From a virus (Duplodnaviria; Heunggongvirae; Uroviricota; Caudoviricetes), in IMG/VR virus record IMGVR_UViG_2703718837_000004: 15,008 bases of DNA, one strand, 5' to 3'. The translations under genes and the position numbers were made by a program. Positions 1 to 15,008 of the stretch are shown here, piece after piece (within the stretch, counting starts at the first letter, position 1; every line of letters starts with the position of its first letter). The notes under the pieces are model-generated. The model saw only the letters and a list, made by a program, of their open reading frames with translations. It was not told where the DNA came from and did no database searches.

Positions 1-318
1 ATGAAAAAGATAGCTGCTATATCATTAATTAGTATTTTTCTTATATCTGGTTGTGCTGTGCATAATGATGAAACAAGTATCGGTAAATTTGGTCTTGCAT
101 ATAAAAGTAATATTCAGCGTAAACTCGATAACCAATACTACACCGAAGCCGAAGCTTCTTTAGCCAGGGGTAGAATATCTGGTGCAGAAAATATAGTAAA
201 AAATGATGCAGCCCATTTCTGTGTTACTCAGGGCAAAAAAATGCAGATAGTTGACCTGAAGACAGAAGGTGCAGGATTACATGGCGTCGCTCGTCTGACA
301 TTCAAATGTGGAGAGTGA
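1..318 (+). CDS. yegR: Small lipoprotein (105 aa), chromosomal flank of the prophage site
   Basis: Complete ORF with an N-terminal signal peptide and lipobox (…FLISGC, Cys18). Size and position next to a P2-type attachment locus opposite yegQ match E. coli yegR as recalled from the K-12 map; symbol not verified by search. Confidence 0.6.
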   Translation: MKKIAAISLISIFLISGCAVHNDETSIGKFGLAYKSNIQRKLDNQYYTEAEASLARGRISGAENIVKNDAAHFCVTQGKKMQIVDLKTEGAGLHGVARLTFKCGE

Positions 319-477
319 GAATATTTTTTGGTAAGCGTCAAATATGCGCGTTCTGGCTGTGCGTAGCCGGAACCTGTGGGAGCACGATGCCGATAAGTGA
401 AAGGCATCGTGCTATGAAGGAGGATTCTATCGATGTGGTCAATGGAAGACGGTTACCAGAGATAGGGCTTATGCATA

Positions 478-497
478 AAAAAATAAGCCCGTGTAAG
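478..497. repeat. Partial att core (20 nt, aaaaaataagcccgtgtaag), left copy
   Basis: Exact 20-nt direct repeat of 13476-13495. The sequences diverge after ...gtaag (cag here, gga at the right copy). Matches the first 20 nt of the 27-nt P2 att core as recalled. Confidence 0.75.
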
Positions 498-1836
498 CAG
501 TGCGACCAACAGCACGTCTGAAACGCTCGCCGCAACACCAAAAGCTGTTAAGACGGTAATGGATGAAGCGAACAAAAAAGCGCCATTAAACAGCCCTGCA
601 CTGACCGGAACGCCAACGACGCCAACTGCGCGACAGGGAACGAATAATACTCAGATCGCAAACACGGCTTTCGTTATGGCCGCGATTGCCGCCATTGTAG
701 ACTCGTCGCCTGACGCACTGAATACGCTGAACGAGCTGGCGGCGGCGCTGGGCAATGACCCGAATTTTGCTACCTCCATGACTAATGCGCTTGCGGGTAA
801 GCAACCGAAAGATGCCACTCTGACGGCGCTGGCGGGGCTTGCTACTGCGGCAGACAGCTTTCCGTATTTTACGGGGAATGATGTTGCCAGTTTGGCAACC
901 CTGACAAAAGTCGGGCGGGATATTCTGGCTAAAGCGACCATTGCTGCCGTTATCGAATACCTCGGTTTGCAGGAAACGGTAAACAGGGCCAGGAACGCGG
1001 TGCAAAAGAATGGCGATACCTTGTCCGGCGGGATTACTTTTGAAAACGACTCAATCCTTGCCTGGATTCGAAATACTGACTGGGCGAAGATTGGATTTAA
1101 AAATGATGCCGATGGTGACGCTGATTCATACATGTGGTTTGAAACGGGGGATAACGGCAATGAATATTTCAAATGGAGAAGCCGCCAGAGTACCACAACA
1201 AAAGACCTGATGACGCTGAAATGGGATGCACTAAATATTCTTGTTAATGCCGTCATTAATGGCTGTCTTGGAGTTGGTACGACGAATGCACTAGGTGGTA
1301 GCTCTATTGTCCTTGGTGATAATGATACCGGATTTAAACAGAATGGAGACGGTATTCTTGATGTTTATGCTAACAGTCAGCGTGTATTCCGTTTTCAGAA
1401 TGGAGTGGCTATTGCTTTTAAAAATATTCAGGCAGGGGATAGTAAAAAGTTCTCGCTATCCAGCTCTAACACATCCACGAAGAATATTACCTTTAATTTA
1501 TGGGGTGCTTCCAACCGTCCAGTGGTTGCAGAGTTAGGCGATGAGTCCGGATGGCATTTCTATAGCCAGCGAAATACAGATAACTCGGTAATATTTGCTG
1601 TTAACGGTCAGATGCAACCCAGCAACTGGGGGAATTTTGATTCCCGCTATGTGAAAGATGTTCGCCTGGGTACGCGAGTTGTTCAATTGATGGCGCGAGG
1701 TGGTCGTTATGAAAAAGCCGGACACACGATTACCGGATTAAGAATCATTGGTGAAGTAGATGGCGATGATGAGGCCATCTTCAGGCCGATACAAAAATAC
1801 ATCAATGGCACATGGTATAACGTTGCGCAGGTGTAA
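496..1836 (+). pseudogene. H: Tail fiber protein H, 5'-truncated fragment (C-terminal ~2/3 of a P2 H-like protein)
   Basis: Reading frame opens straight out of the att core. Translation from 496 reads SSATNSTSETLAATPKAVKTVMDEANKKAPLNSPALTGTPTTP…, which is a mid-protein tail fiber repeat, and continues to …INGTWYNVAQV with stop at 1834-1836. No N-terminal baseplate-attachment region and no native start or RBS; the ORF-track start at 559 is an internal Met. Confidence 0.8.
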
Positions 1837-1839
1837 GTA

Positions 1840-2367
1840 ATGCAGCATTTAAAGAACATTAAGTCAGGTAATCCAAAAACAAAAGAGCAATATCAGCTAA
1901 CAAAGAATTTTGATGTTATCTGGTTATGGTCCGAAGACGGAAAAAACTGGTATGAGGAAGTAAGTAATTTTCAGCCAGACACAATAAAGATTGTTTACGA
2001 TGAAAATAATATTATTGTCGCCATCACCAGAGATGCTTCAACGCTTAATCCTGAAGGTTTTAGCGTCGTTGAGGTTCCTGATATTACTGCCAACCGGCGT
2101 GCTGATGACTCAGGTAAATGGATGTTTAAGGATGGTGCCGTGATTAAGCGGATTTATACGGCAGACGAACAGCAGAAACTAGCGGAATTACATAAGGCAG
2201 CTTTGCTTTCCGAAGCTGAATCCGTAATTTTGCCGCTGGAGCGCGCTGTCAGGCTGAATATGGCAACAGGTGAGGAGCGCAGTCGACTGGATGCATGGGA
2301 ACGCTACAGCGTTCTGGTCAGTCGTGTGGACCCTTCAAATCCTGAATGGCCGGACATGCCGCAATAA
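1840..2367 (+). CDS. G: Tail fiber assembly chaperone (P2 gpG-like, 175 aa)
   Basis: ATG 4 nt after the H stop with an AGGTG RBS. Length and sequence ([10 protein letters not shown]…EWPDMPQ) match P2 G as recalled; position immediately downstream of H is conserved. Confidence 0.9.
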
Positions 2368-2751
2368 GTTGTATGATCTCTGGAGTGAGCTAACGTATCT
2401 ATGGTACAGAGTAAAGCCTAATCTGACAGTCCGCTCCGAGTCAACAGCGGGAGTTGGAGTGCCAGATACTATCTAAAAGTTGATGGTTTCTTTTGTAGGG
2501 ATACCTACAGGCGCATTTGCACTTGAACAGTCAGAAGAACTCGACGAGACCGGCGTCGGCCAGAAAATGGCGAAGCCCGCATTTTCTACGACCGTTTGCA
2601 GGAACACTCTTGGATGTTACGTATAATAGTATGGTAGACCAGAATGACCGACAGCTTAGTGCTCAGACGGTGTAAAAAGGGAACGTTGCTAACGTTAATT
2701 TGTGTGATTAGTTGAAGGAATACTTATGCTGGTAACTATTTTTACTATTAA

Positions 2752-2769
2752 GGCCCTTGCTTTAGGGCC
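2752..2769 (-). terminator. Weak candidate terminator downstream of the RT gene
   Basis: Hairpin GGCCC-N8-GGGCC lying about 20 nt past the RT stop; on the minus strand it is followed by a moderately U-rich tract (UUAAUAGUAAAAAUAG). Confidence 0.3.
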
Positions 2770-2789
2770 AAAACATTAACTTTCTAAGG

Positions 2790-3887
2790 CTAGGGTTTTA
2801 GCAGTGCATTAGAAATTTCATCAATAATCACTGAGTATTTGGTGATTTCGTTTTCGTGAAAACATCTGAATTTATCATTAAATTTTACTAATGATATTAA
2901 ATATGAACGATAACCAGCTAACTTATTAGAGAATTGTGAATTATAAAAATCCGTTACAAACTGATCTGCATTGTTATTATACTTGACAGTTGGTGATTTA
3001 ACAGAAAATACTTTTTTGCAAATATGCTCTTTAGAATATCCCTTTTTAAATTTATCTAGTGCTTTCCGTATTAAATACATTTTTCCATTAGATATTCTTA
3101 TACTCCCTCTCTCTCCCCCTCCATTTTTATTTTCTATTACATAGCCGTTTAGTGAGATTATGCCTTTCTTAAATATTTTTTTATGTTTGTTGAGGGACAG
3201 TCCTGCCGTATTGACAATAGTTGATATCTCGTTGTCAAAATGTTCACTTCCAAGAAGTTTGTCTTTCCCGGAGCTCGAAAAAAGCATATCATCAGCATAA
3301 CGAGTGTAAATGATGCTTCTTTTGTCACACAAACTTTTAATTAAAATATCTAACTTTCTGAAAATTATATTGGATATGAAAGGTGATGTGGCGAATCCCA
3401 TTGGAAATATTTTTTTCTTTTTATTGTTGACTACAATCTCAATAGATAAACTATTTAAAAATGCATCAATAACTTTGATTTTTTTATTTACCAGATATTC
3501 ATCTTCAAAGTAGGATTTGAAACACTCCCTTGCAAAGTTATAGTTTATGTTATGAAAAAAATTACATAAGTCAATTCGACAAAAGTTCTCACCATGGATA
3601 TGAGGTTCTAGAAAATTCAAATAGTTTAATTTTTTACGATAGGCAATTGCAGGTGAGCTAAGAGGAACTTTTACTAGGAAATTTTTTATAAGTCTTTCTT
3701 GTATTTTTTTATGCGGGGAGCTTTTTCTTATAGTGAAACATAATCTATTCTTTAATGAAATGCTTTTATAATCGTCATTGGAAATCTCAGGGACTCCGTG
3801 AGTCATAATAATATCATCGGAGAATGTTTCTCTTAGATAAAAATTTTTATAAAAATCATTGTTAATTTTATTAATTTTATGTTTCAT
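2790..3887 (-). CDS. Reverse transcriptase (defence-associated type; retron-like or Abi-P2-like), 365 aa
   Basis: RT motifs readable in the translation: motif A …CRIDLCNFFHNI, motif B …FPMGFATSPFISNIIF, motif C …YTRYADDMLF (YADD). AGGAAG RBS 7-8 nt upstream of the ATG. Same strand as, and 120 nt downstream of, the OLD-like gene. Confidence 0.8.
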   Translation of the reverse strand: MKHKINKINNDFYKNFYLRETFSDDIIMTHGVPEISNDDYKSISLKNRLCFTIRKSSPHKKIQERLIKNFLVKVPLSSPAIAYRKKLNYLNFLEPHIHGENFCRIDLCNFFHNINYNFARECFKSYFEDEYLVNKKIKVIDAFLNSLSIEIVVNNKKKKIFPMGFATSPFISNIIFRKLDILIKSLCDKRSIIYTRYADDMLFSSSGKDKLLGSEHFDNEISTIVNTAGLSLNKHKKIFKKGIISLNGYVIENKNGGGERGSIRISNGKMYLIRKALDKFKKGYSKEHICKKVFSVKSPTVKYNNNADQFVTDFYNSQFSNKLAGYRSYLISLVKFNDKFRCFHENEITKYSVIIDEISNALLKP

Positions 3888-3893
3888 GTAAAA

Positions 3894-4043
3894 GCTTCCT
3901 CTTCGATACCAATAACATCTTTACACCCCGTGAGGCTTAAAGCGGCTTAGCGGACGCAAGACAATCCGAGCTAGTGTTTGCTGGAGCAAGTGACGGCATG
4001 CGTCAGCTCATTTGAGCCCTCCAGCTTCTATCGAAGAAGAAGC
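3894..4043 (-). ncRNA. Candidate structured ncRNA (retron msr-msd-like) bracketed by a 15-nt inverted repeat
   Basis: Arms at 3894-3908 (gcttcctcttcgata) and 4029-4043 (tatcgaagaagaagc). In the minus-strand transcript they pair over 15 positions (14 Watson-Crick plus one G.U); on the plus strand that position would be a C.A mismatch. Nested stems: gctggag 3980-3986 with ctccagc 4019-4025, and tgacg 3991-3995 with cgtca 4001-4005. Local G+C is clearly higher than in the flanking AT-rich genes. The distal arm sits immediately 5' of the RT start and contains its RBS; the proximal arm overlaps the last codons of the ATPase gene. Confidence 0.3.
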
Positions 4044-6272
4044 ATGATCGATGATATGCGAAATTTCAGGAAAAGCCAAGCGGAATTTTTTTTCGACATT
4101 TTCTTTATCTAGGGCTGAATAATGATTAAGGCTAAAATCAATGAAGCTTGTAACCCATCCAGAAGTCTTTCCTATGTAAGAACTCATAAAAGAGAAATTT
4201 TCTGACTTTAATGCTTTGATATAATCCAATATATCTTGCCGTATCGGTTTTTGATCAATTTTATAATGCATTTCTATACTTACAAGAGTTTCTGTTTTGC
4301 CACTAAAAATAAGGCGCAAGATAGCAACTTGGTCTTTTACGTCGGGGATGGTTTTTTTAAACTCATCAATTATTTCTTTAGCATATCTAATTTTAATGAT
4401 TTTCAATAATCTCATGTGTCGCAATGGTAGGTTATGATTTGTTTCACATTTTGAAAGTATTTTGGGAAAAAGTTGTTTTGATTGGGTTTTAATATCGTAT
4501 TTTTGCAGCAGAGCATTAATCATTTTTACAGGGTTTTTATTATTTACATTAAAGCTTCTCATTACTATGTCAATGATCCATAAAGAGAATGTCTCTAAAG
4601 AGAATTCATTGATCAATGAGCCTTCTATCGTTGTAGAAGTATAATAAACATTATCTTTAGAGGATAAAAAATTAACTGCGCTTATAACTCTGCCTATACT
4701 GAAGTGTCTGAATTTTAGGCCATTTTCACTGAATGTTACTTTCCTTTCATCTTGGCTTAAAAGAAATTTTGCTGCGTTAAGAAAAGGTTTTTGGTATGTC
4801 GAAAAATAGTGTAGTTTATCTCTCTTAATGATTTTATTAATAATTGATTTCCCTTTCGAATTAAATTTAAATTGTTCATGTTCGAAGTCAACAACGGCAA
4901 TCTGATCAATATCCTTTACTACTAGAAATGGGATGGCTGCATTTGAGTAGCTGGGGTTTATATTTTTCAACATTACTTCATCGCAATCATACACATCTAA
5001 CCTTTTAAGTACTGGAAACAGCTTTTGCAGATTATAATTTCTAAACAATTCAACTTCTGTGGCGCCCTCTACAAATAGAATGTATTCACTAAAGAATAGA
5101 CGGGCCTCATTATCGCTAAGCATATTTATAAATCTAATGTCATTATATTTAGAGTTTAATTTTGAAATTTTGGTCGAGTTGTCACGTTCTTTTGAAAAAT
5201 GCAAAACCTGCTGTTTATGTAAGAAAGATTTTAGCGTGAGTTTTAGTAAACTCGGAGAATGAGTGCTAAATATAAGAGTTGGATATGGTGTTGAATATTT
5301 TCCAGGCTCAATTTCCTCATGGGTTTTATCATACTTTTTATATGTCAGGCTTATGTTCTCAATAAAGTTCTCGCTAAGTTTTGGATGTAGCCCAATTTCA
5401 GGTTCATCAATATATATAATTGGATTGATAAATTCTGTTCTTGTTAATGAAATTAATAGGCTAAGTATAATTTCAAGATATTTGTGAGAGTTCGTGCCAT
5501 CCGACTGAACATGTAGTTCTTCACCTTTATTTATGAAAATATCGCCATCTAAAACTATTTTTAGATAATTAACGACTTTATCTTTATAGGTGTAAGGTTT
5601 AGTATGGATTACATTTTCAACTCTTTCTATATACTTCTTGTAACTACCCCGCTTAGTTGATATTTTCTCATTCAAAAACTCAAGGAGTTCTTCTTTTTTT
5701 ATTTCAGAGAAATTAAAGGAATTTATACTGCTGAGCATTTTCCATATGCTATTCCAGTCGTATAAGTCAATGTGTCTGGTTTCAATATGGAAAAAAGGAA
5801 ATAGAGTTTTAATTAGATGCCGGGCATTTGGTGTGCTAATTGACCAAGTTACGGAGTCATCTTTAGAAATTGTGAGTGTAATGCTATAAGTGCTTTTTCT
5901 TTGGAAACCCAAAGGAGATATGAAAGGAAGACAGAATTTCTGCGGCTTTCGGATGAATGATTGTGGCTTAAATAAAGTGTTATAAATATGCTTGTGAAAG
6001 CGACCATTGTTATTAGGGTTCATTACAATTCTCTTTATTCTTGTTACATCATAAGTCAATGTTATTGACCCTGAAGGAGTATAACTAGAATGAAAATCAG
6101 GAGGTATTACTTTTATGTCGTCAAGTTTGTCGTAAAAATATTTCAATATTTTCATAAGATTGGATTTGCCAACATTATTCATCCCTACAATGCAATTTAC
6201 ATCCTCTAGGGAATTTATTATTACATCATTAAATGATAGTAAGTTTTTTATTCTTATGCTTTGCAAACCCAT
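4008..6272 (-). CDS. OLD-family ABC-type ATPase / Toprim nuclease-like protein, 754 aa
   Basis: Walker A GMNNVGKS (aa 30-37), Walker B/D-loop IIYIDEPEIGLHP (aa ~285-297), H-loop FSTHSP (aa ~335-340). Toprim signature follows: ILFVEGATE (aa ~398-406) and FLVVKDIDQ (DxD, aa ~449-457). About 200 aa of C-terminal extension. RBS AAGGAA upstream of the ATG. Confidence 0.8.
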   Translation of the reverse strand: MGLQSIRIKNLLSFNDVIINSLEDVNCIVGMNNVGKSNLMKILKYFYDKLDDIKVIPPDFHSSYTPSGSITLTYDVTRIKRIVMNPNNNGRFHKHIYNTLFKPQSFIRKPQKFCLPFISPLGFQRKSTYSITLTISKDDSVTWSISTPNARHLIKTLFPFFHIETRHIDLYDWNSIWKMLSSINSFNFSEIKKEELLEFLNEKISTKRGSYKKYIERVENVIHTKPYTYKDKVVNYLKIVLDGDIFINKGEELHVQSDGTNSHKYLEIILSLLISLTRTEFINPIIYIDEPEIGLHPKLSENFIENISLTYKKYDKTHEEIEPGKYSTPYPTLIFSTHSPSLLKLTLKSFLHKQQVLHFSKERDNSTKISKLNSKYNDIRFINMLSDNEARLFFSEYILFVEGATEVELFRNYNLQKLFPVLKRLDVYDCDEVMLKNINPSYSNAAIPFLVVKDIDQIAVVDFEHEQFKFNSKGKSIINKIIKRDKLHYFSTYQKPFLNAAKFLLSQDERKVTFSENGLKFRHFSIGRVISAVNFLSSKDNVYYTSTTIEGSLINEFSLETFSLWIIDIVMRSFNVNNKNPVKMINALLQKYDIKTQSKQLFPKILSKCETNHNLPLRHMRLLKIIKIRYAKEIIDEFKKTIPDVKDQVAILRLIFSGKTETLVSIEMHYKIDQKPIRQDILDYIKALKSENFSFMSSYIGKTSGWVTSFIDFSLNHYSALDKENVEKKFRLAFPEISHIIDHASSSIEAGGLK

Positions 6273-6376
6273 GGGAGCGATTCCTTATAAAAATAAAACC
6301 TTGTATTCCTATAATTCGAGTGATGTCTCAACGGACTATTCGGAACAACTTTGGTTTATATAGCTCAAGTTTTTAT

Positions 6377-6400
6377 TCATTATTATGCATGTAATAATGA
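6377..6400. promoter_or_regulatory. Palindrome in the presumptive cargo promoter region (tcattatta-tgcatg-taataatga)
   Basis: Perfect 9-bp inverted repeat with a 6-bp spacer, 105-128 bp upstream of the ATPase start in AT-rich DNA. Operator-like; no cognate regulator gene is visible. Confidence 0.25.
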
Positions 6401-6648
6401 ATTACAAGTTTTCATTTTGCTTGGAATCAATTTTTTCACTCAGGTAAAGTAATTTTTGCGAGTGACTGTATGATACGGTCTCAATAGTATTAGAGCTTGA
6501 ATTCAGAATTGCAGTGATGCTCATTGTGCGGCTACTTTCACTGTATGCCATCCATGTCTGTTTCTCGCTCAAAGCAGGCTGTCAGATTTGATAGCGTTTT
6601 GGCTACGTATTTTGTCAGTTGGAAATTGAGAGAGTGCAAATCAAGGCT

Positions 6649-6675
6649 GGCGGGCTGATTGCCCGCCTTTTCTTT
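6649..6675 (+). terminator. Rho-independent terminator between the cargo island and the FI promoter region
   Basis: Stem GGCGGGC (6649-6655), loop tgatt, GCCCGCC (6661-6667), then TTTTCTTT. Would stop read-through from the H-G transcript before the F operon. Confidence 0.6.
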
Positions 6676-6771
6676 ATCTGTTGTTTCATCCACTGGCCAG
6701 CCAGGTCAAATAGCGTCTCATGCTCTGCACAACAGAAAATAGTTGCACCCATTAACCACGGAGTTAAACGG
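6676..6771 (+). promoter_or_regulatory. Presumptive late promoter region for the F operon (P_F-like)
   Basis: Placed by position only: between the terminator and the FI RBS (GGAG at 6761-6764). TGT triplets at 6679-6684 lie at roughly -55 if transcription starts about 30-40 nt upstream of FI, but an exact TGT-N12-ACA Ogr box is not present. Confidence 0.3.
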
Positions 6772-7962
6772 ATGAGTGACTATCATCATGGCGTGCAGGT
6801 GCTGGAGATTAACGACGGCACCCGCGTCATTTCCACCGTATCCACTGCCATTGTCGGCATGGTCTGCACGGCCAGCGATGCGGATGCGGAAACCTTCCCC
6901 CTCAATAAACCGGTGTTGATTACCAATGTGCAGAGCGCAATTGCAAAGGCCGGTAAAAAAGGCTCGCTGGCGGCATCGTTGCAGGCCATCGCCGACCAGT
7001 CAAAACCGGTCACCGTTGTCGTGCGTGTGGAAGACGGCACCGGCGACGACGAGGAAACGAAACTTGCGCAGACCGTTTCCAATATCATCGGCACCACCGA
7101 CGAAAACGGTCAGTACACCGGACTGAAAGCCCTGCTGGCGGCGGAGTCGGTAACCGGTGTTAAACCGCGTATTCTCGGTGTGCCGGGACTGGATACCAAA
7201 GAGGTGGCTGTTGCACTAGCATCCGTCTGTCAGAAGCTGCGCGCTTTCGGATATATCAGCGCATGGGGCTGTAAGACCATTTCCGAGGTGAAAGCCTACC
7301 GCCAGAATTTCAGCCAGCGTGAGCTGATGGTCATCTGGCCGGATTTCCTCGCATGGGATACGGTCACCAGTACCACCGCCACCGCGTATGCCACCGCCCG
7401 TGCGCTGGGTCTGCGCGCTAAAATCGACCAGGAGCAGGGCTGGCATAAAACGCTGTCCAACGTCGGGGTAAACGGTGTTACCGGCATCAGCGCATCTGTA
7501 TTCTGGGATTTGCAGGAGTCCGGCACCGATGCTGACCTGTTGAACGAGTCTGGCGTCACAACGCTGATTCGCCGCGACGGTTTCCGCTTCTGGGGTAACC
7601 GTACCTGCTCTGATGACCCGCTGTTCCTCTTTGAAAACTACACCCGCACCGCGCAGGTGCTGGCCGACACGATGGCTGAGGCGCACATGTGGGCGGTGGA
7701 CAAGCCCATCACCGCAACGCTGATTCGCGACATCGTTGACGGCATCAATGCCAAATTCCGTGAGCTGAAAACAAACGGCTATATCGTGGATGCGACCTGC
7801 TGGTTCAGCGAAGAATCCAACGATGCGGAAACCCTCAAGGCCGGAAAACTGTATATCGACTACGACTATACCCCGGTGCCTCCTCTCGAAAACCTGACCC
7901 TGCGCCAGCGTATTACCGATAAATACCTGGCAAATCTGGTCACCTCGGTTAACAGCAATTAA
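6772..7962 (+). CDS. FI: Contractile tail sheath protein (P2 gpFI-like, 396 aa)
   Basis: Start set at ATG 6772 (MSDYHHGVQVLEIN…) with a GGAG RBS 7 nt upstream. The ORF-track start at 6619 would run through the upstream terminator. Sequence matches P2 FI as recalled. Confidence 0.9.
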   Translation: MSDYHHGVQVLEINDGTRVISTVSTAIVGMVCTASDADAETFPLNKPVLITNVQSAIAKAGKKGSLAASLQAIADQSKPVTVVVRVEDGTGDDEETKLAQTVSNIIGTTDENGQYTGLKALLAAESVTGVKPRILGVPGLDTKEVAVALASVCQKLRAFGYISAWGCKTISEVKAYRQNFSQRELMVIWPDFLAWDTVTSTTATAYATARALGLRAKIDQEQGWHKTLSNVGVNGVTGISASVFWDLQESGTDADLLNESGVTTLIRRDGFRFWGNRTCSDDPLFLFENYTRTAQVLADTMAEAHMWAVDKPITATLIRDIVDGINAKFRELKTNGYIVDATCWFSEESNDAETLKAGKLYIDYDYTPVPPLENLTLRQRITDKYLANLVTSVNSN

Positions 7963-7974
7963 GGAGCCTGACCG

Positions 7975-8493
7975 ATGGCAATGCCGCGCAAACTCAAGTT
8001 AATGAACGTCTTTCTGAACGGCTACAGCTATCAGGGCGTTGCAAAGTCCCTCACGCTACCAAAACTGACCCGTAAGCTCGAAAACTATCGCGGTGCGGGG
8101 ATGAACGGCAGCGCACCGGTAGACCTCGGCCTTGATGACGATGCGCTGTCAATGGAGTGGTCGCTCGGTGGCTTCCCGGATTCGGTTATCTGGGAGCTTT
8201 ACGCAGCAACCGGCGTGGATGCCGTGCCGATTCGTTTTGCTGGCTCTTACCAGCGCGACGATACCGGCGAAACGGTTGCCGTCGAAGTGGTCATGCGTGG
8301 ACGTCAGAAAGAAATCGATACCGGCGAGGGTAAACAGGGAGAAGACACCGAGTCGAAAATCTCCGTGGTCTGTACCTATTTCCGGCTGACGATGGACGGT
8401 AAGGAGCTGGTCGAAATCGACACCATCAACATGATTGAGAAGGTGAACGGCGTCGACCGGCTGGAGCAACACCGCCGCAATATCGGCCTGTGA
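7975..8493 (+). CDS. FII: Tail tube protein (P2 gpFII-like, 172 aa)
   Basis: AGGAG RBS; MAMPRKLKLMNVFLNGYSYQGVAKS… matches P2 FII as recalled; conserved position after FI. Confidence 0.9.
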   Translation: MAMPRKLKLMNVFLNGYSYQGVAKSLTLPKLTRKLENYRGAGMNGSAPVDLGLDDDALSMEWSLGGFPDSVIWELYAATGVDAVPIRFAGSYQRDDTGETVAVEVVMRGRQKEIDTGEGKQGEDTESKISVVCTYFRLTMDGKELVEIDTINMIEKVNGVDRLEQHRRNIGL

Positions 8494-8549
8494 TTTTCAT
8501 CCGGTCAGCCTGGCTGACCGGTTAACCCTGATTCAGAAGTGAGAAAACC

Positions 8550-8825
8550 ATGAACAAAGAAAATGTGATTACCCTGGACAATCCGGTCAAACGTGGTGAG
8601 CAGGTTATCGAACAGGTCACGCTGATGAAACCCAGTGCCGGGACGCTGCGCGGTGTCAGTCTGGCTGCGGTCGCGAACTCCGAAGTCGATGCACTGATTA
8701 AGGTGCTGCCGCGCATGACTGCACCGATGCTGACCGAGCAGGAAGTCGCCGCACTGGAACTGCCTGACCTTGTGGCGCTGGCCGGTAAGGTGGTCGGTTT
8801 TTTGTCGCCGAACTCGGTGCAGTGA
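8550..8825 (+). CDS. E: Tail assembly chaperone E (P2 gpE-like, 91 aa)
   Basis: MNKENVITLDNPVKRGEQVIEQ…; GAGAAAACC upstream of the ATG. Contains the slippery heptamer near its 3' end. Confidence 0.85.
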   Translation: MNKENVITLDNPVKRGEQVIEQVTLMKPSAGTLRGVSLAAVANSEVDALIKVLPRMTAPMLTEQEVAALELPDLVALAGKVVGFLSPNSVQ

Positions 8826-8977
8826 CGTTCCCGAAAAATCTGTCGGTCGATGACCTGATGGCGGATGTGGCAGTGATATTTCACTGGCCGCCATCAGAAC
8901 TGTATCCCATGAGCCTGACCGAACTCATCACATGGCGCGAAAAGGCGCTCCGGCGAAGTGGAAGCACGAATGAGTAA
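8550..8977 (+). CDS. E': E+E' fusion chaperone produced by programmed -1 frameshift
   Basis: Slippery site T TTT TTG at 8798-8804 in E frame. The -1 frame continues from 8804 as VAELGAVTFPKNLSVDDLMADVAVIFHWPPSELYPMSLTELITWREKALRRSGSTNE to TAA at 8975-8977, overlapping the T start. Same arrangement as P2 E/E' and lambda G/GT. Confidence 0.7.
8798..8804 (+). other. -1 ribosomal frameshift slippery heptamer (T TTT TTG)
   Basis: X XXY YYZ motif in the E reading frame, followed by an open -1 frame of 57 codons. Confidence 0.7.
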
Positions 8978-11417
8978 CAATGTAAAATTACAGGTATTGC
9001 TCAGGGCTGTTGACCAGGCATCCCGCCCGTTTAAATCCATCCGTACAGCGAGCAGGTCGCTGTCGGGGGATATCCGGGAAACACAAAAATCACTGCGCGA
9101 GCTGAACGGTCACGCATCCCGTATTGAGGGATTCCGCAAGACCAGTGCACAGCTCGCCGTGACTGGTCATGCACTTGAAAAGGCACGGCAGGAAGCCGAA
9201 GCCCTTGCCACACAGTTTAAAAACACCGAACGTCCGACCCGTGCTCAGGCGAAAGTGCTGGAATCCGCAAAGCGTGCGGCGGAGGACTTACAGGCGAAAT
9301 ATAACCGCCTGACAGATTCCGTTAAACGCCAGCAGCGGGAACTGGCCGCTGTGGGAATTAATACCCGCAATCTTGCACATGATGAGCAGGGACTGAAAAA
9401 CCGTATCAGTGAAACCACCGCACAGCTTAACCGTCAGCGTGATGCGCTGGCGCGTGTCAGTGCGCAACAGGCAAAACTTAACGCAGTAAAACAGCGTTAT
9501 CAGGCCGGAAAGGAACTGGCCGGAAATATGGCCTCAGTGGGCGCTGCCGGTGTGGGGATTGCGGCGGCGGGAACGATGGCCGGTGTTAAGCTACTGATGC
9601 CCGGTTATGAGTTTGCGCAGAAAAACTCAGAATTGCAGGCCGTGCTAGGTGTGGCAAAAGACTCCGCCGAAATGGCCGCACTCCGCAAGCAGGCGCGCCA
9701 GCTCGGCGACAATACCGCCGCCTCGGCAGATGATGCAGCCGGTGCGCAGATTATTATTGCGAAAGCCGGTGGGGATGTTGATGCCATTCAGGCGGCAACG
9801 CCGGTCACGCTGAACATGGCGCTGGCGAACCGCCGCACGATGGAAGAAAACGCCGCCCTGTTGATGGGGATGAAATCCGCCTTTCAGCTTTCAAACGATA
9901 AGGTCGCTCATATCGGGGATGTTCTCTCCATGACGATGAACAAAACCGCCGCCGATTTTGACGGCATGAGCGATGCGCTGACCTATGCCGCACCTGTGGC
10001 AAAAAATGCCGGTGTCAGCATTGAAGAAACCGCCGCAATGGTCGGGGCGCTGCATGATGCAAAAATCACAGGCTCAATGGCGGGGACGGGAAGCCGTGCC
10101 GTGTTAAGCCGCCTGCAGGCACCGACGGGAAAAGCATGGGATGCACTGAAAGAGCTTGGTGTGAAAACCTCAGACAGCAAGGGAAACACCCGACCAATAT
10201 TTACCATTCTGAAAGAAATGCAGGCCAGTTTTGAGAAAAACCGGCTCGGTACTGCCCAGCAGGCTGAATACATGAAAACCATTTTCGGGGAGGAGGCCAG
10301 CTCAGCCGCCGCCGTGCTGATGACTGCCGCCTCAACCGGAAAGCTGGACAAACTGACCGCTGCGTTTAAAGCCTCAGACGGAAAGACCGCAGAGCTGGTT
10401 AAAATCATGCAGGATAACCTCGGCGGTGACTTTAAGGAGTTTCAGTCCGCTTATGAGGCGGTGGGGACAGACCTGTTTGACCAGCAGGAAGGCGCACTGC
10501 GTAAGCTCACTCAGACGGCCACAAAGTATGTGTTAAAACTCGACGGCTGGATACAGAAAAACAAATCACTGGCGTCAACCATCGGCCTCATTGTCGGTGG
10601 CGCACTGGCGCTGACTGGCATCATCGGTGCCATTGGTCTTGTAGCCTGGCCGGTTATCACCGGCATTAATGCCATCATCGCGGCAGCAGGCGCAATGGGG
10701 GCAATTTTCACGACGGTTGGCAGTGCTGTTATGACCGCCATCGGGGCGATTAGCTGGCCGGTTGTGGCCGTGGTGGCCGCCATTGTCGCCGGGGCGTTAC
10801 TTATCCGTAAATACTGGGAGCCTGTCAGCGCATTCTTTGGCGGTGTGGTGGAAGGGCTGAAAGCGGCATTTGCGCCGGTGGGGGAGCTGTTCACGCCACT
10901 GAAACCGGTGTTTGACTGGCTGGGCGAAAAGTTACAGGCTGCGTGGCAGTGGTTTAAAAACCTGATTGCCCCGGTCAAAGCCACTCAGGACACCCTGAAC
11001 AGTTGCCGTGACACGGGTGTCATGTTCGGGCAGGCACTGGCTGACGCGCTGATGCTGCCGCTTAATGCGTTCAACAAACTGCGCAGCGGTATTGACTGGG
11101 TACTGGAAAAACTCGGGGTTATCAACAAAGAGTCAGACACACTTGACCAGACCGCCGCAAGGACTCATGCCGCCACGTATGGCACCGGTGGTTATATTCC
11201 GGCGACCAGCTCTTATGCAGGTTATCAGGCTTATCAGCCGGTTACGGCACCGGCTGGCCGCTCTTATGTGGACCAGAGTAAAAACGAATATCACATCAGC
11301 CTGACGGGTGGTACTGCGCCGGGGACACAGCTTGACCGCCAGTTACAGGATGCGCTCGAAAAATACGAGCGGGATAAACGTGCGCGCGCCCGTGCCAGCA
11401 TGATGCATGACGGTTAA
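8970..11417 (+). CDS. T: Tail tape measure protein (P2 gpT-like, 815 aa)
   Basis: ATG at 8970 (MSNNVKLQVLLRAVDQ…) with a GGAAG RBS. The ORF-track start at 8958 is an in-frame upstream GTG. Long alanine/glycine-rich hydrophobic central segment typical of tape measure proteins. Confidence 0.85.
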   Translation: MSNNVKLQVLLRAVDQASRPFKSIRTASRSLSGDIRETQKSLRELNGHASRIEGFRKTSAQLAVTGHALEKARQEAEALATQFKNTERPTRAQAKVLESAKRAAEDLQAKYNRLTDSVKRQQRELAAVGINTRNLAHDEQGLKNRISETTAQLNRQRDALARVSAQQAKLNAVKQRYQAGKELAGNMASVGAAGVGIAAAGTMAGVKLLMPGYEFAQKNSELQAVLGVAKDSAEMAALRKQARQLGDNTAASADDAAGAQIIIAKAGGDVDAIQAATPVTLNMALANRRTMEENAALLMGMKSAFQLSNDKVAHIGDVLSMTMNKTAADFDGMSDALTYAAPVAKNAGVSIEETAAMVGALHDAKITGSMAGTGSRAVLSRLQAPTGKAWDALKELGVKTSDSKGNTRPIFTILKEMQASFEKNRLGTAQQAEYMKTIFGEEASSAAAVLMTAASTGKLDKLTAAFKASDGKTAELVKIMQDNLGGDFKEFQSAYEAVGTDLFDQQEGALRKLTQTATKYVLKLDGWIQKNKSLASTIGLIVGGALALTGIIGAIGLVAWPVITGINAIIAAAGAMGAIFTTVGSAVMTAIGAISWPVVAVVAAIVAGALLIRKYWEPVSAFFGGVVEGLKAAFAPVGELFTPLKPVFDWLGEKLQAAWQWFKNLIAPVKATQDTLNSCRDTGVMFGQALADALMLPLNAFNKLRSGIDWVLEKLGVINKESDTLDQTAARTHAATYGTGGYIPATSSYAGYQAYQPVTAPAGRSYVDQSKNEYHISLTGGTAPGTQLDRQLQDALEKYERDKRARARASMMHDG

Positions 11418-11431
11418 GGAGGTGACGAAAA

Positions 11432-11911
11432 ATGATGCTCGCGTTAGGTATGTTTGTTTTTATGCGCCAGACGCTGCCACACCAGACCATGCAGCGTGAA
11501 TCAGATTATCGCTGGCCGTCAAATTCCCGTATCGGTAAACGGGACGCTTTTCAGTTTCTCGGTGTGGGTGAGGAAAACATCACGCTGGCCGGTGTGCTTT
11601 ATCCCGAACTGACCGGCGGAAAGCTGACGATGACCACGCTCAGGATGATGGCAGAGGAAGGCCGGGCGTGGCCGTTGCTGGATGGCACCGGCATGATTTA
11701 CGGCATGTATGTCATCAGCAGGGTAAGTGAAACAGGGAGTATTTTCTTTGCAGACGGCACACCCCGGAAAATTGATTTTACGCTGTCGCTCACCCGCGTT
11801 GATGAATCACTGGCCGCGCTTTATGGCGATATCGGTAAACAGGCGGAATCGCTCATCGGTAAAGCTGGCAGTATGGCGACCAGATTCACGGGGATGACGG
11901 GGGCGGGATAA
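11432..11911 (+). CDS. U: Tail protein U (P2 gpU-like, 159 aa)
   Basis: AAGGAGG RBS 8 nt upstream; MMLALGMFVFMRQTLPHQ… matches P2 U as recalled. Confidence 0.9.
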   Translation: MMLALGMFVFMRQTLPHQTMQRESDYRWPSNSRIGKRDAFQFLGVGEENITLAGVLYPELTGGKLTMTTLRMMAEEGRAWPLLDGTGMIYGMYVISRVSETGSIFFADGTPRKIDFTLSLTRVDESLAALYGDIGKQAESLIGKAGSMATRFTGMTGAG

Positions 11912-13074
11912 TGCTGGATGCACTGACATTTGATGCAGGCAGTACGCTGACGCCGGATTACATGCTGATGCTCGACAGCAGGGATATTACCGGCAATATC
12001 AGCGACCGTCTGATGAGCATGACCCTGACGGATAACCGGGGCTTTGAGGCTGACCAGCTTGATATTGAACTGAACGATGCCGACGGGCAGGTCGGGCTAC
12101 CGGTTCGTGGCGCTGTCCTGACGGTGTATATCGGCTGGAAAGGTTTTGCCCTGGTATGCAAAGGGAAATTCACCGTTGATGAGGTTGAACACCGGGGCGC
12201 GCCGGATGTGGTCACCATCCGCGCCCGGAGTGCAGATTTTCGCGGGACGCTCAATTCCCGCCGGGAAGGCTCCTGGCATGACACCACACTCGGTGCGATT
12301 GTTGAAGCGATAGCCTCCCGTAACAGGCTGGAAGCCAGTGTCGCTCCGTCACTGGCCGGAATTAAAATCCCGCACATCGACCAGTCGCAGGAGTCTGATG
12401 CGAAATTCCTGACCCGTCTTGCAGAACGCAACGGCGGTGAGGTGTCGGTAAAAATGGGAAAACTGTTGTTTCTCAAAGCGGGGCAGGGGGTGACGGCCAG
12501 CGGTAAAAAAATCCCGCAGATTACCATCACCCGCAGCGACGGCGACCGTCATCATTTTGCGATTGCTGACCGTGGAGCTTACACCGGCGTAACGGCAAAG
12601 TGGTTACACACCAAAGACCCGAAGCCGCAAAAGCAGAAGGTAAAACTGAAACGCAAAAAGAAAGAAAAACACCTGCGCGCACTGGAGCACCCGAAAGCGA
12701 AACCGGTCACGCAGAAGAAAGCGCCAAAAGTACCGGAAGCGCGCGAAGGTGAATACATGGCCGGTGAGGCTGACAACGTTTTTGCCCTGACTACGGTATA
12801 TGCCACGAAAGCGCAGGCCATGCGCGCCGCTCAGGCGAAGTGGGATAAACTGCAACGGGGTGTGGCGGAGTTCTCCATCAGCCTGGCTACCGGTCGGGCA
12901 GATATTTACACGGAAACACCGGTTAAAGTGTCAGGCTTTAAGCGCGTCATAGACGAGCAGGACTGGACAATCACTAAGGTGACACATTTTCTGAATAATA
13001 GCGGCTTCACGACGTCCTTAGAGCTTGAGGTCAGGCTTTCTGATGTGGAGTACGAAACAGAAGATGATGAGTGA
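11911..13074 (+). CDS. D: Tail protein D (P2 gpD-like, 387 aa)
   Basis: Start overlaps the U stop (TAATG). Sequence matches P2 D as recalled. Contains a Lys-rich low-complexity segment (KPQKQKVKLKRKKKEKH…). Confidence 0.9.
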   Translation: MLDALTFDAGSTLTPDYMLMLDSRDITGNISDRLMSMTLTDNRGFEADQLDIELNDADGQVGLPVRGAVLTVYIGWKGFALVCKGKFTVDEVEHRGAPDVVTIRARSADFRGTLNSRREGSWHDTTLGAIVEAIASRNRLEASVAPSLAGIKIPHIDQSQESDAKFLTRLAERNGGEVSVKMGKLLFLKAGQGVTASGKKIPQITITRSDGDRHHFAIADRGAYTGVTAKWLHTKDPKPQKQKVKLKRKKKEKHLRALEHPKAKPVTQKKAPKVPEAREGEYMAGEADNVFALTTVYATKAQAMRAAQAKWDKLQRGVAEFSISLATGRADIYTETPVKVSGFKRVIDEQDWTITKVTHFLNNSGFTTSLELEVRLSDVEYETEDDE

Positions 13075-13155
13075 TGTTTTTATTTTATCTGTTTGTTTTA
13101 TAAGGATAAATTAACTAAAATGGCACCATCAATAAAACCGGAAGAGGTGCTCGCG

Positions 13156-13374
13156 ATGTTTCATTGTCCTTTATGCCAGCATGCCGCACATGCGCGTACA
13201 AGCCGCTATATCACTGACACGACAAAAGAGCGTTATCACCAGTGTCAGAACGTGAATTGCAGCGCCACGTTCATCACTTATGAGTCGGTACAGCGATACA
13301 TCGTGAAGCCGGGAGAAGTCCACGCCGTAAGGCCACACCCGTTGCCGTCAGGGCAGCAAATTATGTGGATGTAA
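13156..13374 (+). CDS. ogr: Late gene transcriptional activator Ogr (zinc-finger, 72 aa)
   Basis: MFHCPLCQHAAHARTSRYITDTTKERYHQCQNVNCSATF… with a CxxC…CxxxxC zinc-binding motif; matches P2 Ogr as recalled. The ORF-track start at 13093 is an upstream in-frame extension; AT-rich putative promoter at 13075-13125. Confidence 0.85.
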   Translation: MFHCPLCQHAAHARTSRYITDTTKERYHQCQNVNCSATFITYESVQRYIVKPGEVHAVRPHPLPSGQQIMWM

Positions 13375-13386
13375 TTACAAACAGAA

Positions 13387-13412
13387 AGCCCCTCAGTCGA
13401 GGGGCTTTTTTG
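13387..13412 (+). terminator. Rho-independent terminator downstream of ogr
   Basis: Stem AGCCCCTC (13387-13394), loop agtc, GAGGGGCT (13399-13406), then TTTTTTG. Confidence 0.6.
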
Positions 13413-13475
13413 TCGATGTGGTCAATGTGTGGACGTGACCAGAAATAAATCCTTTTATTTCAATTTGTTGTACGT

Positions 13476-13502
13476 AAAAAATAAGCCCGTGTAAGGGAGA
13501 TT
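13476..13502. repeat. att core (27 nt, aaaaaataagcccgtgtaagggagatt), right copy, overlapping the cyaR terminator
   Basis: Matches the P2 att core as recalled. The first 20 nt are repeated exactly at 478-497. Phage arm lies to the left, bacterial DNA (cyaR, yegQ) to the right. Confidence 0.75.
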
Positions 13503-13562
13503 ACACAGGCTAAGGAGGTGGTTCCTGGTACAGCTAGCATTTTATGGGTTATGTTTTTCAGC
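13476..13562 (-). ncRNA. cyaR: CyaR (RyeE) Hfq-dependent small RNA
   Basis: Minus-strand sequence GCUGAAAAACAUAACCCAUAAAAUGCUAGCUGUACCAGGAACCACCUCCUUAGCCUGUGUAAUCUCCCUUACACGGGCUUAUUUUUU matches the E. coli CyaR sequence as recalled. Includes the C/U-rich seed and a terminator hairpin plus U-tail whose 3' half is the att core. Confidence 0.7.
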
Positions 13563-13596
13563 GAAACGGATGATAACCTTAATAAATGCAGCTGTA

Positions 13597-13646: not shown

Positions 13647-15008
13647 TCACTTACCGTGGGGATTACGCGTGGTTTCCCCGGAGAAATTACGCATCAGCAG
13701 CGCGTAATTGAGCTCAAGATCCTGCGGGACCGGGAGCCACACAGTATAACCATCGCCTGGTGCTATCGGCATAGCTTCGCCTTTGGCGTTTTCCATGTGC
13801 TCAAGGGTAAAATTAATGTTGCCTTGCGGCGTCATCAGCTCAAGGCTGTCGCCAACGGAGAATTTATTTTTCACCGCTACCGCCGCGAGGTCCCCCTTGC
13901 GCTCACCGGTAAACTCACCAACAAACTGCTGGCGGTCAGAAACTGAATAACCGTATTCGTAGTTCTGATAATCGTCGTGAGTATGACGACGCAGGAAACC
14001 TTCGGTATAGCCACGATGCGCCAGACCTTCCAGAGTTTCCAGCAGGCTGGTATCGAACGGTTTTCCCGCAACGGCGTCATCGATAGCTTTGCGGTAAACC
14101 TGTGCGGTGCGTGCACAATAGTAGAAAGATTTGGTACGACCTTCGATTTTCAGCGAATGCACGCCCATTTTGGTCAGGCGTTCTACATGGGCGATGGCGC
14201 GCAGATCTTTCGAGTTCATGATGTAAGTGCCGTGCTCATCTTCAAACGCGGTCATATACTCGCCCGGACGCTGGGCCTCTTCGATCATAAACACTTTGTC
14301 GGTTGGTGCGCCGATACCCAGCGTCGGCTCAACATTTTGCACCGGAATCGGCTCGTACTTGTGTACGATGTTGCCAACATCATCTTCTTTCCCTTCCTGG
14401 ACGTTGTACTCCCAGCGGCAGGCGTTGGTGCAGGTGCCCTGGTTCGGGTCGCGCTTGTTGATATAGCCAGAGAGCAGGCAGCGACCGGAGTAGGCCATGC
14501 ACAGCGCGCCGTGAACGAAGATCTCGATCTCCATATCCGGCACCTGATTGCGGATCTCTTCAATCTCTTCCAGCGACAGCTCGCGAGAGAGGATCACGCG
14601 GGTCAGGCCCATTTGCTGCCAGAATTTCACCGTCGCCCAGTTCACGGCGTTAGCCTGCACCGAAAGGTGGATCGGCATTTCAGGGAAGTGCTCACGCACC
14701 AGCATAATCAGCCCTGGATCGGACATAATCAGCGCATCCGGCCCCATTTCCACCACCGGTTTCAGGTCACGGATAAAGGTTTTCAGCTTGGCGTTGTGCG
14801 GTGCAATGTTGACCACGACATAAAACTTTTTCCCCAGCGCGTGGGCTTCATTGATGCCGAGCTGAAGATTTTCGTGGTTGAATTCGTTGTTGCGCACACG
14901 CAGGGAATAACGCGGCTGGCCCGCATAAACAGCATCTGCGCCATAAGCGAAAGCGTAACGCATATTTTTCAGCGTTCCCGCCGGGGAAAGGAGTTCCGGT
15001 TTAAACAT
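13647..15008 (-). CDS. yegQ: U32-family peptidase-like protein YegQ (453 aa), complete
   Basis: Full ORF from ATG (15006-15008 on the minus strand) to stop. MFKPELLSPAGTLKNMRYAFAYGADAVYAGQPRYSLR… matches E. coli YegQ as recalled. Cys-rich region CMAYSGRCLLSGYINKRDPNQGTCTNACRW. Confidence 0.85.
   Translation of the reverse strand: MFKPELLSPAGTLKNMRYAFAYGADAVYAGQPRYSLRVRNNEFNHENLQLGINEAHALGKKFYVVVNIAPHNAKLKTFIRDLKPVVEMGPDALIMSDPGLIMLVREHFPEMPIHLSVQANAVNWATVKFWQQMGLTRVILSRELSLEEIEEIRNQVPDMEIEIFVHGALCMAYSGRCLLSGYINKRDPNQGTCTNACRWEYNVQEGKEDDVGNIVHKYEPIPVQNVEPTLGIGAPTDKVFMIEEAQRPGEYMTAFEDEHGTYIMNSKDLRAIAHVERLTKMGVHSLKIEGRTKSFYYCARTAQVYRKAIDDAVAGKPFDTSLLETLEGLAHRGYTEGFLRRHTHDDYQNYEYGYSVSDRQQFVGEFTGERKGDLAAVAVKNKFSVGDSLELMTPQGNINFTLEHMENAKGEAMPIAPGDGYTVWLPVPQDLELNYALLMRNFSGETTRNPHGK

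Follow-up and report, generated by a model that had tools for sequence, protein, structure and literature searches.

The window analysed here is a stretch of 15,008 nucleotides, considered at its full length, which runs from yegR through a P2-like prophage remnant to the small RNA gene cyaR and to yegQ. The following features were recognised in it (positions in the window, strand, basis of the assignment in brackets).

1-318, plus strand: yegR, a small AT-rich lipoprotein gene, the sole gene within the putative fossil island discussed below (open reading frame; named yegR in K-12 and other strains)
319-476: spacer of 158 bp from yegR to the att core
381-413, without strand: hairpin with a perfect 11-bp stem and an 11-nt loop, 60 nt 3' of yegR (folding)
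425-464, plus strand: putative relic of a P2-type P arm, including a 15-mer (430-444) and one intact arm-type repeat TGTGGTCA (434-441), the second repeat and the IHF site being decayed or deleted (30/40 identity to 13408-13447)
478-497, plus strand: left (attL) copy of the att core, 20 of 27 nt left, equal to the cyaR terminator half (sequence AAAAAATAAGCCCGTGTAAG)
494-497, plus strand: TAAG microhomology at the junction of a deletion of about 20.4 kb, where the attL core meets an internal part of the tail-fibre gene H
498-13374, plus strand: P2-like prophage remnant devoid of int, with H' (C-terminal part), G, the retron cargo, FI, FII, E, T, U, D and ogr (open reading frames; RefSeq annotation of the UPEC85 prophage)
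2790-6272, minus strand: retron I-B/Eco8 cargo of two genes (PADLOC)
13385-13408, plus strand: rho-independent terminator of ogr and the F operon (P2 annotation transferred; fold dG -20.2)
13413-13440, plus strand: Int P-arm binding site of the functional type, with the direct repeats TGTGGTCA (13417-13424) and TGTGGACG (13428-13435) (maps from P2 feature 24293-24320)
13444-13477, plus strand: IHF binding site of the P arm (maps from P2 feature 24324-24357)
13476-13502, plus strand: complete 27-nt att core, attR (P2 mapping)
13479-13564, minus strand: cyaR (RyeE) sRNA gene, whose terminator is the att core (Rfam RF00112)
13647-15008, minus strand: yegQ (trhP), conserved bacterial flank (open reading frame and annotation of related strains)

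Over ogr, its terminator, the Int P-arm site, the IHF site and the core, the right end of the window shares 98.8% identity with phage P2. The P2 attP core is AAAAAATAAGCCCGTGTAAGGGAGATT, and the core sequence AAAAAATAAGCCCGTGTAAG is present twice in the window, at 478-497 and at 13476-13495. The gene cyaR was detected with the covariance model RF00112 at 100.7 bits (threshold 47, E = 1.4e-19). Insertions of P2 at cyaR are documented for Wphi2 in strain W, ogr-D' in K-12 and P2*B in strain B (PMC3032704, Table 2). An earlier note, written from the sequence alone, had taken the gtggtca and gtggac repeats for integrase arm-type sites. This assignment is borne out by the P2 annotation, where the Int 'P arm' (24293-24320) maps to 13413-13440, and by the published P2-type Int arm consensus tgTGGaCa, such arm repeats being a feature of the phage family (PMC3448106).

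From position 494 to its end, the window is 99.9% identical to an intact 33-kb P2-like prophage of strain UPEC85, in which int, C, cox and the genes for replication, head and baseplate lie left of H. The homology to intact prophages begins at 494; the intact H reads ttactcagtTAAGcagtgcg. The attL core thus enters H at codon ~178 across the TAAG microhomology, and about 20.4 kb are missing, from int through the 5' part of H (compare positions 3943 and 24358 of locus L017). None of the 5,426 complete E. coli genomes has this junction between the attL core and H. The fusion of the left core to the interior of H had been overlooked in the earlier note, and what was there called a second phage is a deleted remnant of 13 kb. 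The deletion that left ogr-D' in K-12 also begins inside the attL core, at a GTGT microhomology, which hints at Int-promoted or core-targeted deletions. The cargo located between G and FI is a type I-B retron, assigned to the 'retron Eco8 family' in the annotation of the UPEC85 prophage. It is composed of a reverse transcriptase of 365 aa (PADLOC RT_I-B, 2.7e-106) and an effector of the ATPase-Toprim type of 754 aa (PADLOC ATPase-Toprim_I-B, 1.6e-210).

The P-arm-like sequence to the left of attL

The 15-mer tcgatgtggtcaatg is found both at 430-444 and at 13413-13427. The earlier note had reported the left copy one base further to the right (431-445) and had proposed that the left flank contains a diverged copy of the phage P arm; both the repeat and its extension were recovered. 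A repeat search aligned 425-464 with 13408-13447 at an identity of 30/40 (75%). The 15-mer represents the first half of the annotated Int P-arm site of P2 and includes the arm repeat TGTGGTCA. When the E. coli interval from yegS to cyaR was compared with the P2 attP by local alignment, this block was the top match, with a score of 21 (z 7.1; dinucleotide shuffles with mean 11.05 and sd 1.39, among which 21 was reached by 1/1000). The next best score in 32 kb of E. coli DNA, both strands, against the P2 attP region was 12. In the second half of the block, identity to the phage arm is down to about 60%. The match is specific to P2-type arms (tcgatg..., gaccaga) and is not found with the variant arm of E. 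coli ECDA1023 and Kluyvera intermedia.

Of the arm of the P2 attP and attR, the left flank has retained the first repeat and the ...gaccaga... motif, arranged as in the phage with respect to the core. It differs in being 75% identical at best, in the loss of its second repeat and of about 15-16 nt from the IHF site, and in being chromosomal in nearly all E. coli. A single exact TGTGGTCA is present (434-441), the position of the second repeat reading GGAAGACG, whereas the right arm retains both repeats. The ~15-16 nt missing from the IHF site correspond to a gap in the alignment, and the rest of the IHF region is dissimilar. The distance from the 15-mer to the core is accordingly unequal, with 33 nt in the left copy and 48 nt in the right one. 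A motif scan of the whole E. coli yegS-cyaR interval detected no site at a P-arm position other than the left-flank TGTGGTCA. The arm block is adjoined by the att core, with the full 27 nt in empty sites and 20 nt in the window. Judged from these sequence features, the left copy reads as a relic and not as a working P arm. With only one of the two repeats left and an IHF site shortened by about 15-16 nt, it is probably inert.

The hairpin lies upstream of this block. Its perfect 11-bp stem (agcacgatgcc, 381-391; ggcatcgtgct, 403-413) exists as the earlier note had described it, three bases to the right of the position given there (378-410). As RNA it folds with an MFE of -24.3 kcal/mol (z = -6.65), and none of 200 shuffles folded as well. 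Its interpretation as a copy of the ogr terminator was not supported: the hairpin does not align with the ogr terminator in MAFFT and has no T tract, so that the likeness is only one of position. No T tract adjoins it on either strand, and a terminator scan of 250-600 was negative. The hairpin was found in all E. coli alleles examined, with a varying loop, and among phage records it was matched only in those that include host flank. A conserved RNA structure was considered and rejected, the stem variants (C to T, G to A) being non-compensatory and the region containing no Rfam family. A role as a 3'-end or insulating stem-loop for yegR would be a guess.

Distribution of the arm and the far edge of the yegR island

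The segment 319-476 was matched in 5340 of 5426 complete E. coli genomes (~98%) at a coverage of at least 80%. It is 100% identical in K-12, and other alleles go down to about 93%. The uninterrupted junction of arm, core and cyaR was detected in 4208 of the 5426 genomes (at least 80% query coverage), a count that may include a few short remnants pieced together by the search. A phage or a remnant occupies the cyaR site in about a fifth of genomes. In the prophage-free strain 214-4, yegR is followed by the same 158 bp, the full core, cyaR and yegQ. Strains D9, PAR and TUM10008 also have empty sites, with the arm directly against cyaR. A scan of viral contigs for attL junctions gave 103 loci, and the E. 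coli-type arm was the left flank in 99 of them.

When loci from viral contigs were pooled with those from genomes, 32 distinct arm alleles were obtained, differing by up to about 7%. The 15-mer followed by gaagacgg is variable in 2 of these 32 alleles. Special purifying selection on the 15-mer was rejected, since among the 32 alleles it is indistinguishable from other invariant runs of the spacer. Two structural variants were observed: strain R8 has an additional ~170 nt directly 3' of the yegR stop, and alleles of the WCHEC96200 type (L027 and similar) have a 12-nt insertion, tcaatccgtctc, within the arm block.

Being present in empty sites, the left-flank sequence is the standard bacterial arm of the P2 attB at cyaR and not a leftover specific to one strain. 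Its presence in ~98% of genomes and in thousands of empty sites also indicates that it predates the diversification of the strains. The earlier note had proposed serial P2-like integrations, an older prophage having left its attR-side arm at the left junction, and had named as refutation the finding that empty yegR-cyaR sites of related strains already hold the sequence, which they do. An older integration at the level of the strain is therefore abandoned. What the empty sites refute is recency, not phage origin: a serial history is still the best explanation, with a first integration that would be ancient and species-wide.

At the other edge of the yegR region, positions 15364-15420 of locus L002 (57 nt, about 68% identity) align to the P2 att core and the first 30 nt of the P' arm. 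This is the second-best match of the alignment of the yegS-cyaR interval (score 20, z 6.4, 1/1000 dinucleotide shuffles; background at most 12 in 32 kb, both strands). The core and P' block and the P-arm block (16107-16146 of L002) are on the same strand and within 800 bp, in the order of a prophage (core-P' ... P-core), and both types of junction, attL and attR, are thus represented. An extension of the left block into the further P' arm and int was not significant (126/1000 shuffles), and a phage similarity search gave no match between the two blocks, where nothing is recognisably P2-like. The extra ~790 bp of the island are AT-rich, with a GC content of 30-34% compared to about 50-56% in the neighbouring genes.

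The uninterrupted target was found in relatives that lack the element. In the prophage contigs L105, L109 and L123, yegS is followed by a spacer of 87 nt and then by a real core and P' arm, without yegR. L109 encodes a YegS identical to the one of Escherichia sp. TW14182, a strain of the cryptic clade IV (PMC7716201). Between clade IV and E. coli the spacer is identical at 78/88 positions (89%), and at the first base of the core the identity falls to 18/27 (core) and 21/31 (P'). In two Kluyvera species, yegS is about 75 nt from the core and yegR is absent. With this sample of island-less genomes, comprising one Escherichia outgroup lineage and two Kluyvera species only, loss of the island in those lineages, as opposed to its gain in E. 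coli, is still formally conceivable. The Kluyvera spacer itself was of no use for the comparison with the yegS-proximal spacer of E. coli, local alignments giving scores of 10-11 against a shuffle mean of 9.6 (not significant). A likeness seen by eye between the Kluyvera sequence cgtgctttaggaggat and window 405-425 scored equally weakly and was replaced by the clade IV comparison.

The gene yegR was also considered as a phage moron. A tblastn search of 50,697 phage records matched only two, both bearing host flank; these records (ON470606.1 and AY639599.1) contain yegR and the chromosomal arm. The family phrog_21109 matches YegR at 2.9e-71, a match that probably stems from host flank carried into phage databases. 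Homologues of yegR at 48-82% identity lie in unrelated non-phage contexts with the open reading frame alone in common, and yegR behaves as a mobile orphan gene. In metagenome and MAG contigs (L021-L023), a homologue with 82% aa identity is located between glutaminase and nitroreductase genes and is followed by an unannotated ORF of 110 aa. A further copy of yegR lies between IS elements in Enterobacter sp. BIDMC 29. Three YegR homologues tried as outgroups (P0032, P0044 and P0046) all proved to be E. coli loci, with yegS/yegQ contexts ridden with frameshifts in P0044 and P0046 and an intact P2-like prophage adjoining P0032.

Origin of the yegR island

The relics that bound the AT-rich insertion, together with the island-less relatives, lead us to propose an ancient P2-type integration at the terminator of cyaR, of which the ~790-bp yegR island, located between yegS and the cyaR 3' end in nearly all E. 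coli, would be the fossil; we give this reading a probability of roughly 0.75. The left edge of the island would be a decayed att core with its P' arm, and the right edge, of which window 319-476 would be the end, a decayed P arm with an intact core. The right-hand core would have been kept perfect because it doubles as the cyaR terminator. The P2 'attB' at cyaR in E. coli would thus historically be an attR. A present-day P2-like phage would recombine its attP core with the surviving core by Int-mediated site-specific recombination, setting its own ogr, terminator and P arm beside cyaR and moving the fossil P arm to the left junction, and we infer that the recent prophage was trimmed afterwards by the deletion of ~20.4 kb that connects the attL core, through TAAG, with a position halfway into H. 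This displacement of the fossil arm by the new phage would explain why both ends look alike. The ancient element could have been a satellite, an island or any element with a P2-type att module instead of a full phage.

Read literally, as in the earlier note, the left junction would be what is left, about 100 bp, of an older P2-like prophage from the recent history of this strain, next to which a second phage then integrated. The similarity of the arms is real and K-12 shows that short P2 remnants such as ogr-D' occur at this site, but the identical sequence in about 98% of genomes, the thousands of empty sites and a diversity of at least 32 alleles, up to about 7% apart, make such a history extremely improbable. 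A chance or convergent resemblance of native intergenic sequence to an Int site would agree with the second half of the block being only about 60% identical and with the conservation of the 15-mer among alleles, which does not clearly exceed that of other parts of the spacer. It would nevertheless have to produce two independent matches at ~1/1000, in the correct order and orientation within 800 bp, flanking an AT-rich insertion whose left edge coincides with the position of the att core, and to do so specifically for P2-type arms and not for the ECDA1023 / K. intermedia variant; we hold it to be very improbable. The direction of transfer could also be reversed, the phage P arm having been captured from the native E. 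coli flank, for example by aberrant excision. Phages targeting RNA genes do carry host-like 3' gene ends, and the homology is on the side downstream of cyaR. The shared segment, however, is an Int arm-type site, which recurs in the P' arm of P2 and is conserved in phages of the P2 type that use other attachment sites; the yegR-less genera seen so far have no arm-like sequence downstream of cyaR; and capture explains neither the second relic beyond yegR nor why clade IV Escherichia and Kluyvera lack the island altogether, and is consequently quite unlikely.

Two further proposals would build on the fossil integration. The 15-mer may have been maintained or refreshed by recombination or gene conversion with prophage P arms, or by selection if Int still binds it. 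Such upkeep would fit an identity of 15/15 inside a region at roughly 60-70%, the variation of the 15-mer and gaagacgg in only 2/32 alleles, and the ample opportunity offered by the fifth of genomes with a phage or remnant. Against it, a perfect run of 15 nt in about 100 aligned nt at 70% is only mildly unusual (about 0.1 by our own estimate), invariant runs of similar length occur elsewhere in the spacer, and no hybrid allele with the second repeat of the phage was seen among the alleles examined, so that we regard it as unlikely. It is equally doubtful that the fossil arm is not inert, an arm-type Int site at 33 nt from the core making cyaR a 'complex' attB that aids capture or orientation by P2 Int, or alters excision from attL, and that could add to the strong site preference of P2; the same low likelihood applies to yegR as a phage-borne gene that came from the ancient lysogen and was fixed species-wide.

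The fossil integration can be compared with two known situations. Decayed islands between imperfect direct repeats are familiar from degenerate att-site arrays and tandem integrations at tRNA and tmRNA genes. The yegR island shares with them an intact target-gene 3' end next to the relic on one side, a decayed core duplicate on the other, and the entry of newer elements into the surviving core. It differs in that the target is the terminator of an sRNA gene (cyaR) and the relic is about 790 bp with a single orphan gene. The second case is the cryptic P2 remnant ogrK-yegZ (ogr-D') of K-12, located at the same cyaR site with a left flank that is 100% identical (PMC3032704). That remnant is recent and strain-specific, with about 630 bp that are still about 95-99% P2-like, whereas the yegR fossil occurs throughout the species, is older, with ends at about 67-75% identity, and lies outside the K-12 remnant.

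Other elements were also observed at the site. Quite different sequences are found at the cyaR 3' core in four loci (L004, L009, L010 and L011) from Enterobacter hormaechei, Kluyvera cryocrescens and K. ascorbata, including the end of an antitoxin-like gene and other coding sequence. At this core, E. coli ECDA1023 (L005) and K. intermedia (L015) have a P2-like P arm of another type (…ttggaagtggtcaatgtgtggacattgagagaaataaattc…). The cyaR terminator appears to be an integration hotspot for multiple elements across genera.

No paper describing the yegR fossil was found, full-text searches included, in a search that did not extend to the P2 attachment-site paper itself, reportedly that of Barreiro & Haggard-Ljungquist 1992. 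The yegR fossil is a new example of a familiar phenomenon, that of decayed integrated elements at the 3' ends of RNA genes, and its wider significance is modest. For callers of prophage boundaries it calls for caution, as ~50 bp to the left of attL look phage-like and yet belong to the chromosome of almost all E. coli, and yegR flank has already entered a PHROG family and some 'phage' records. Prophage junctions that look alike are, at this locus, no sign of two recent lysogenisations in the strain. The fossil integration would also account for where the orphan gene yegR and the AT-rich sequence around it came from, and a classic phage attachment site of E. coli would be the scar of an older integration by the same type of phage.
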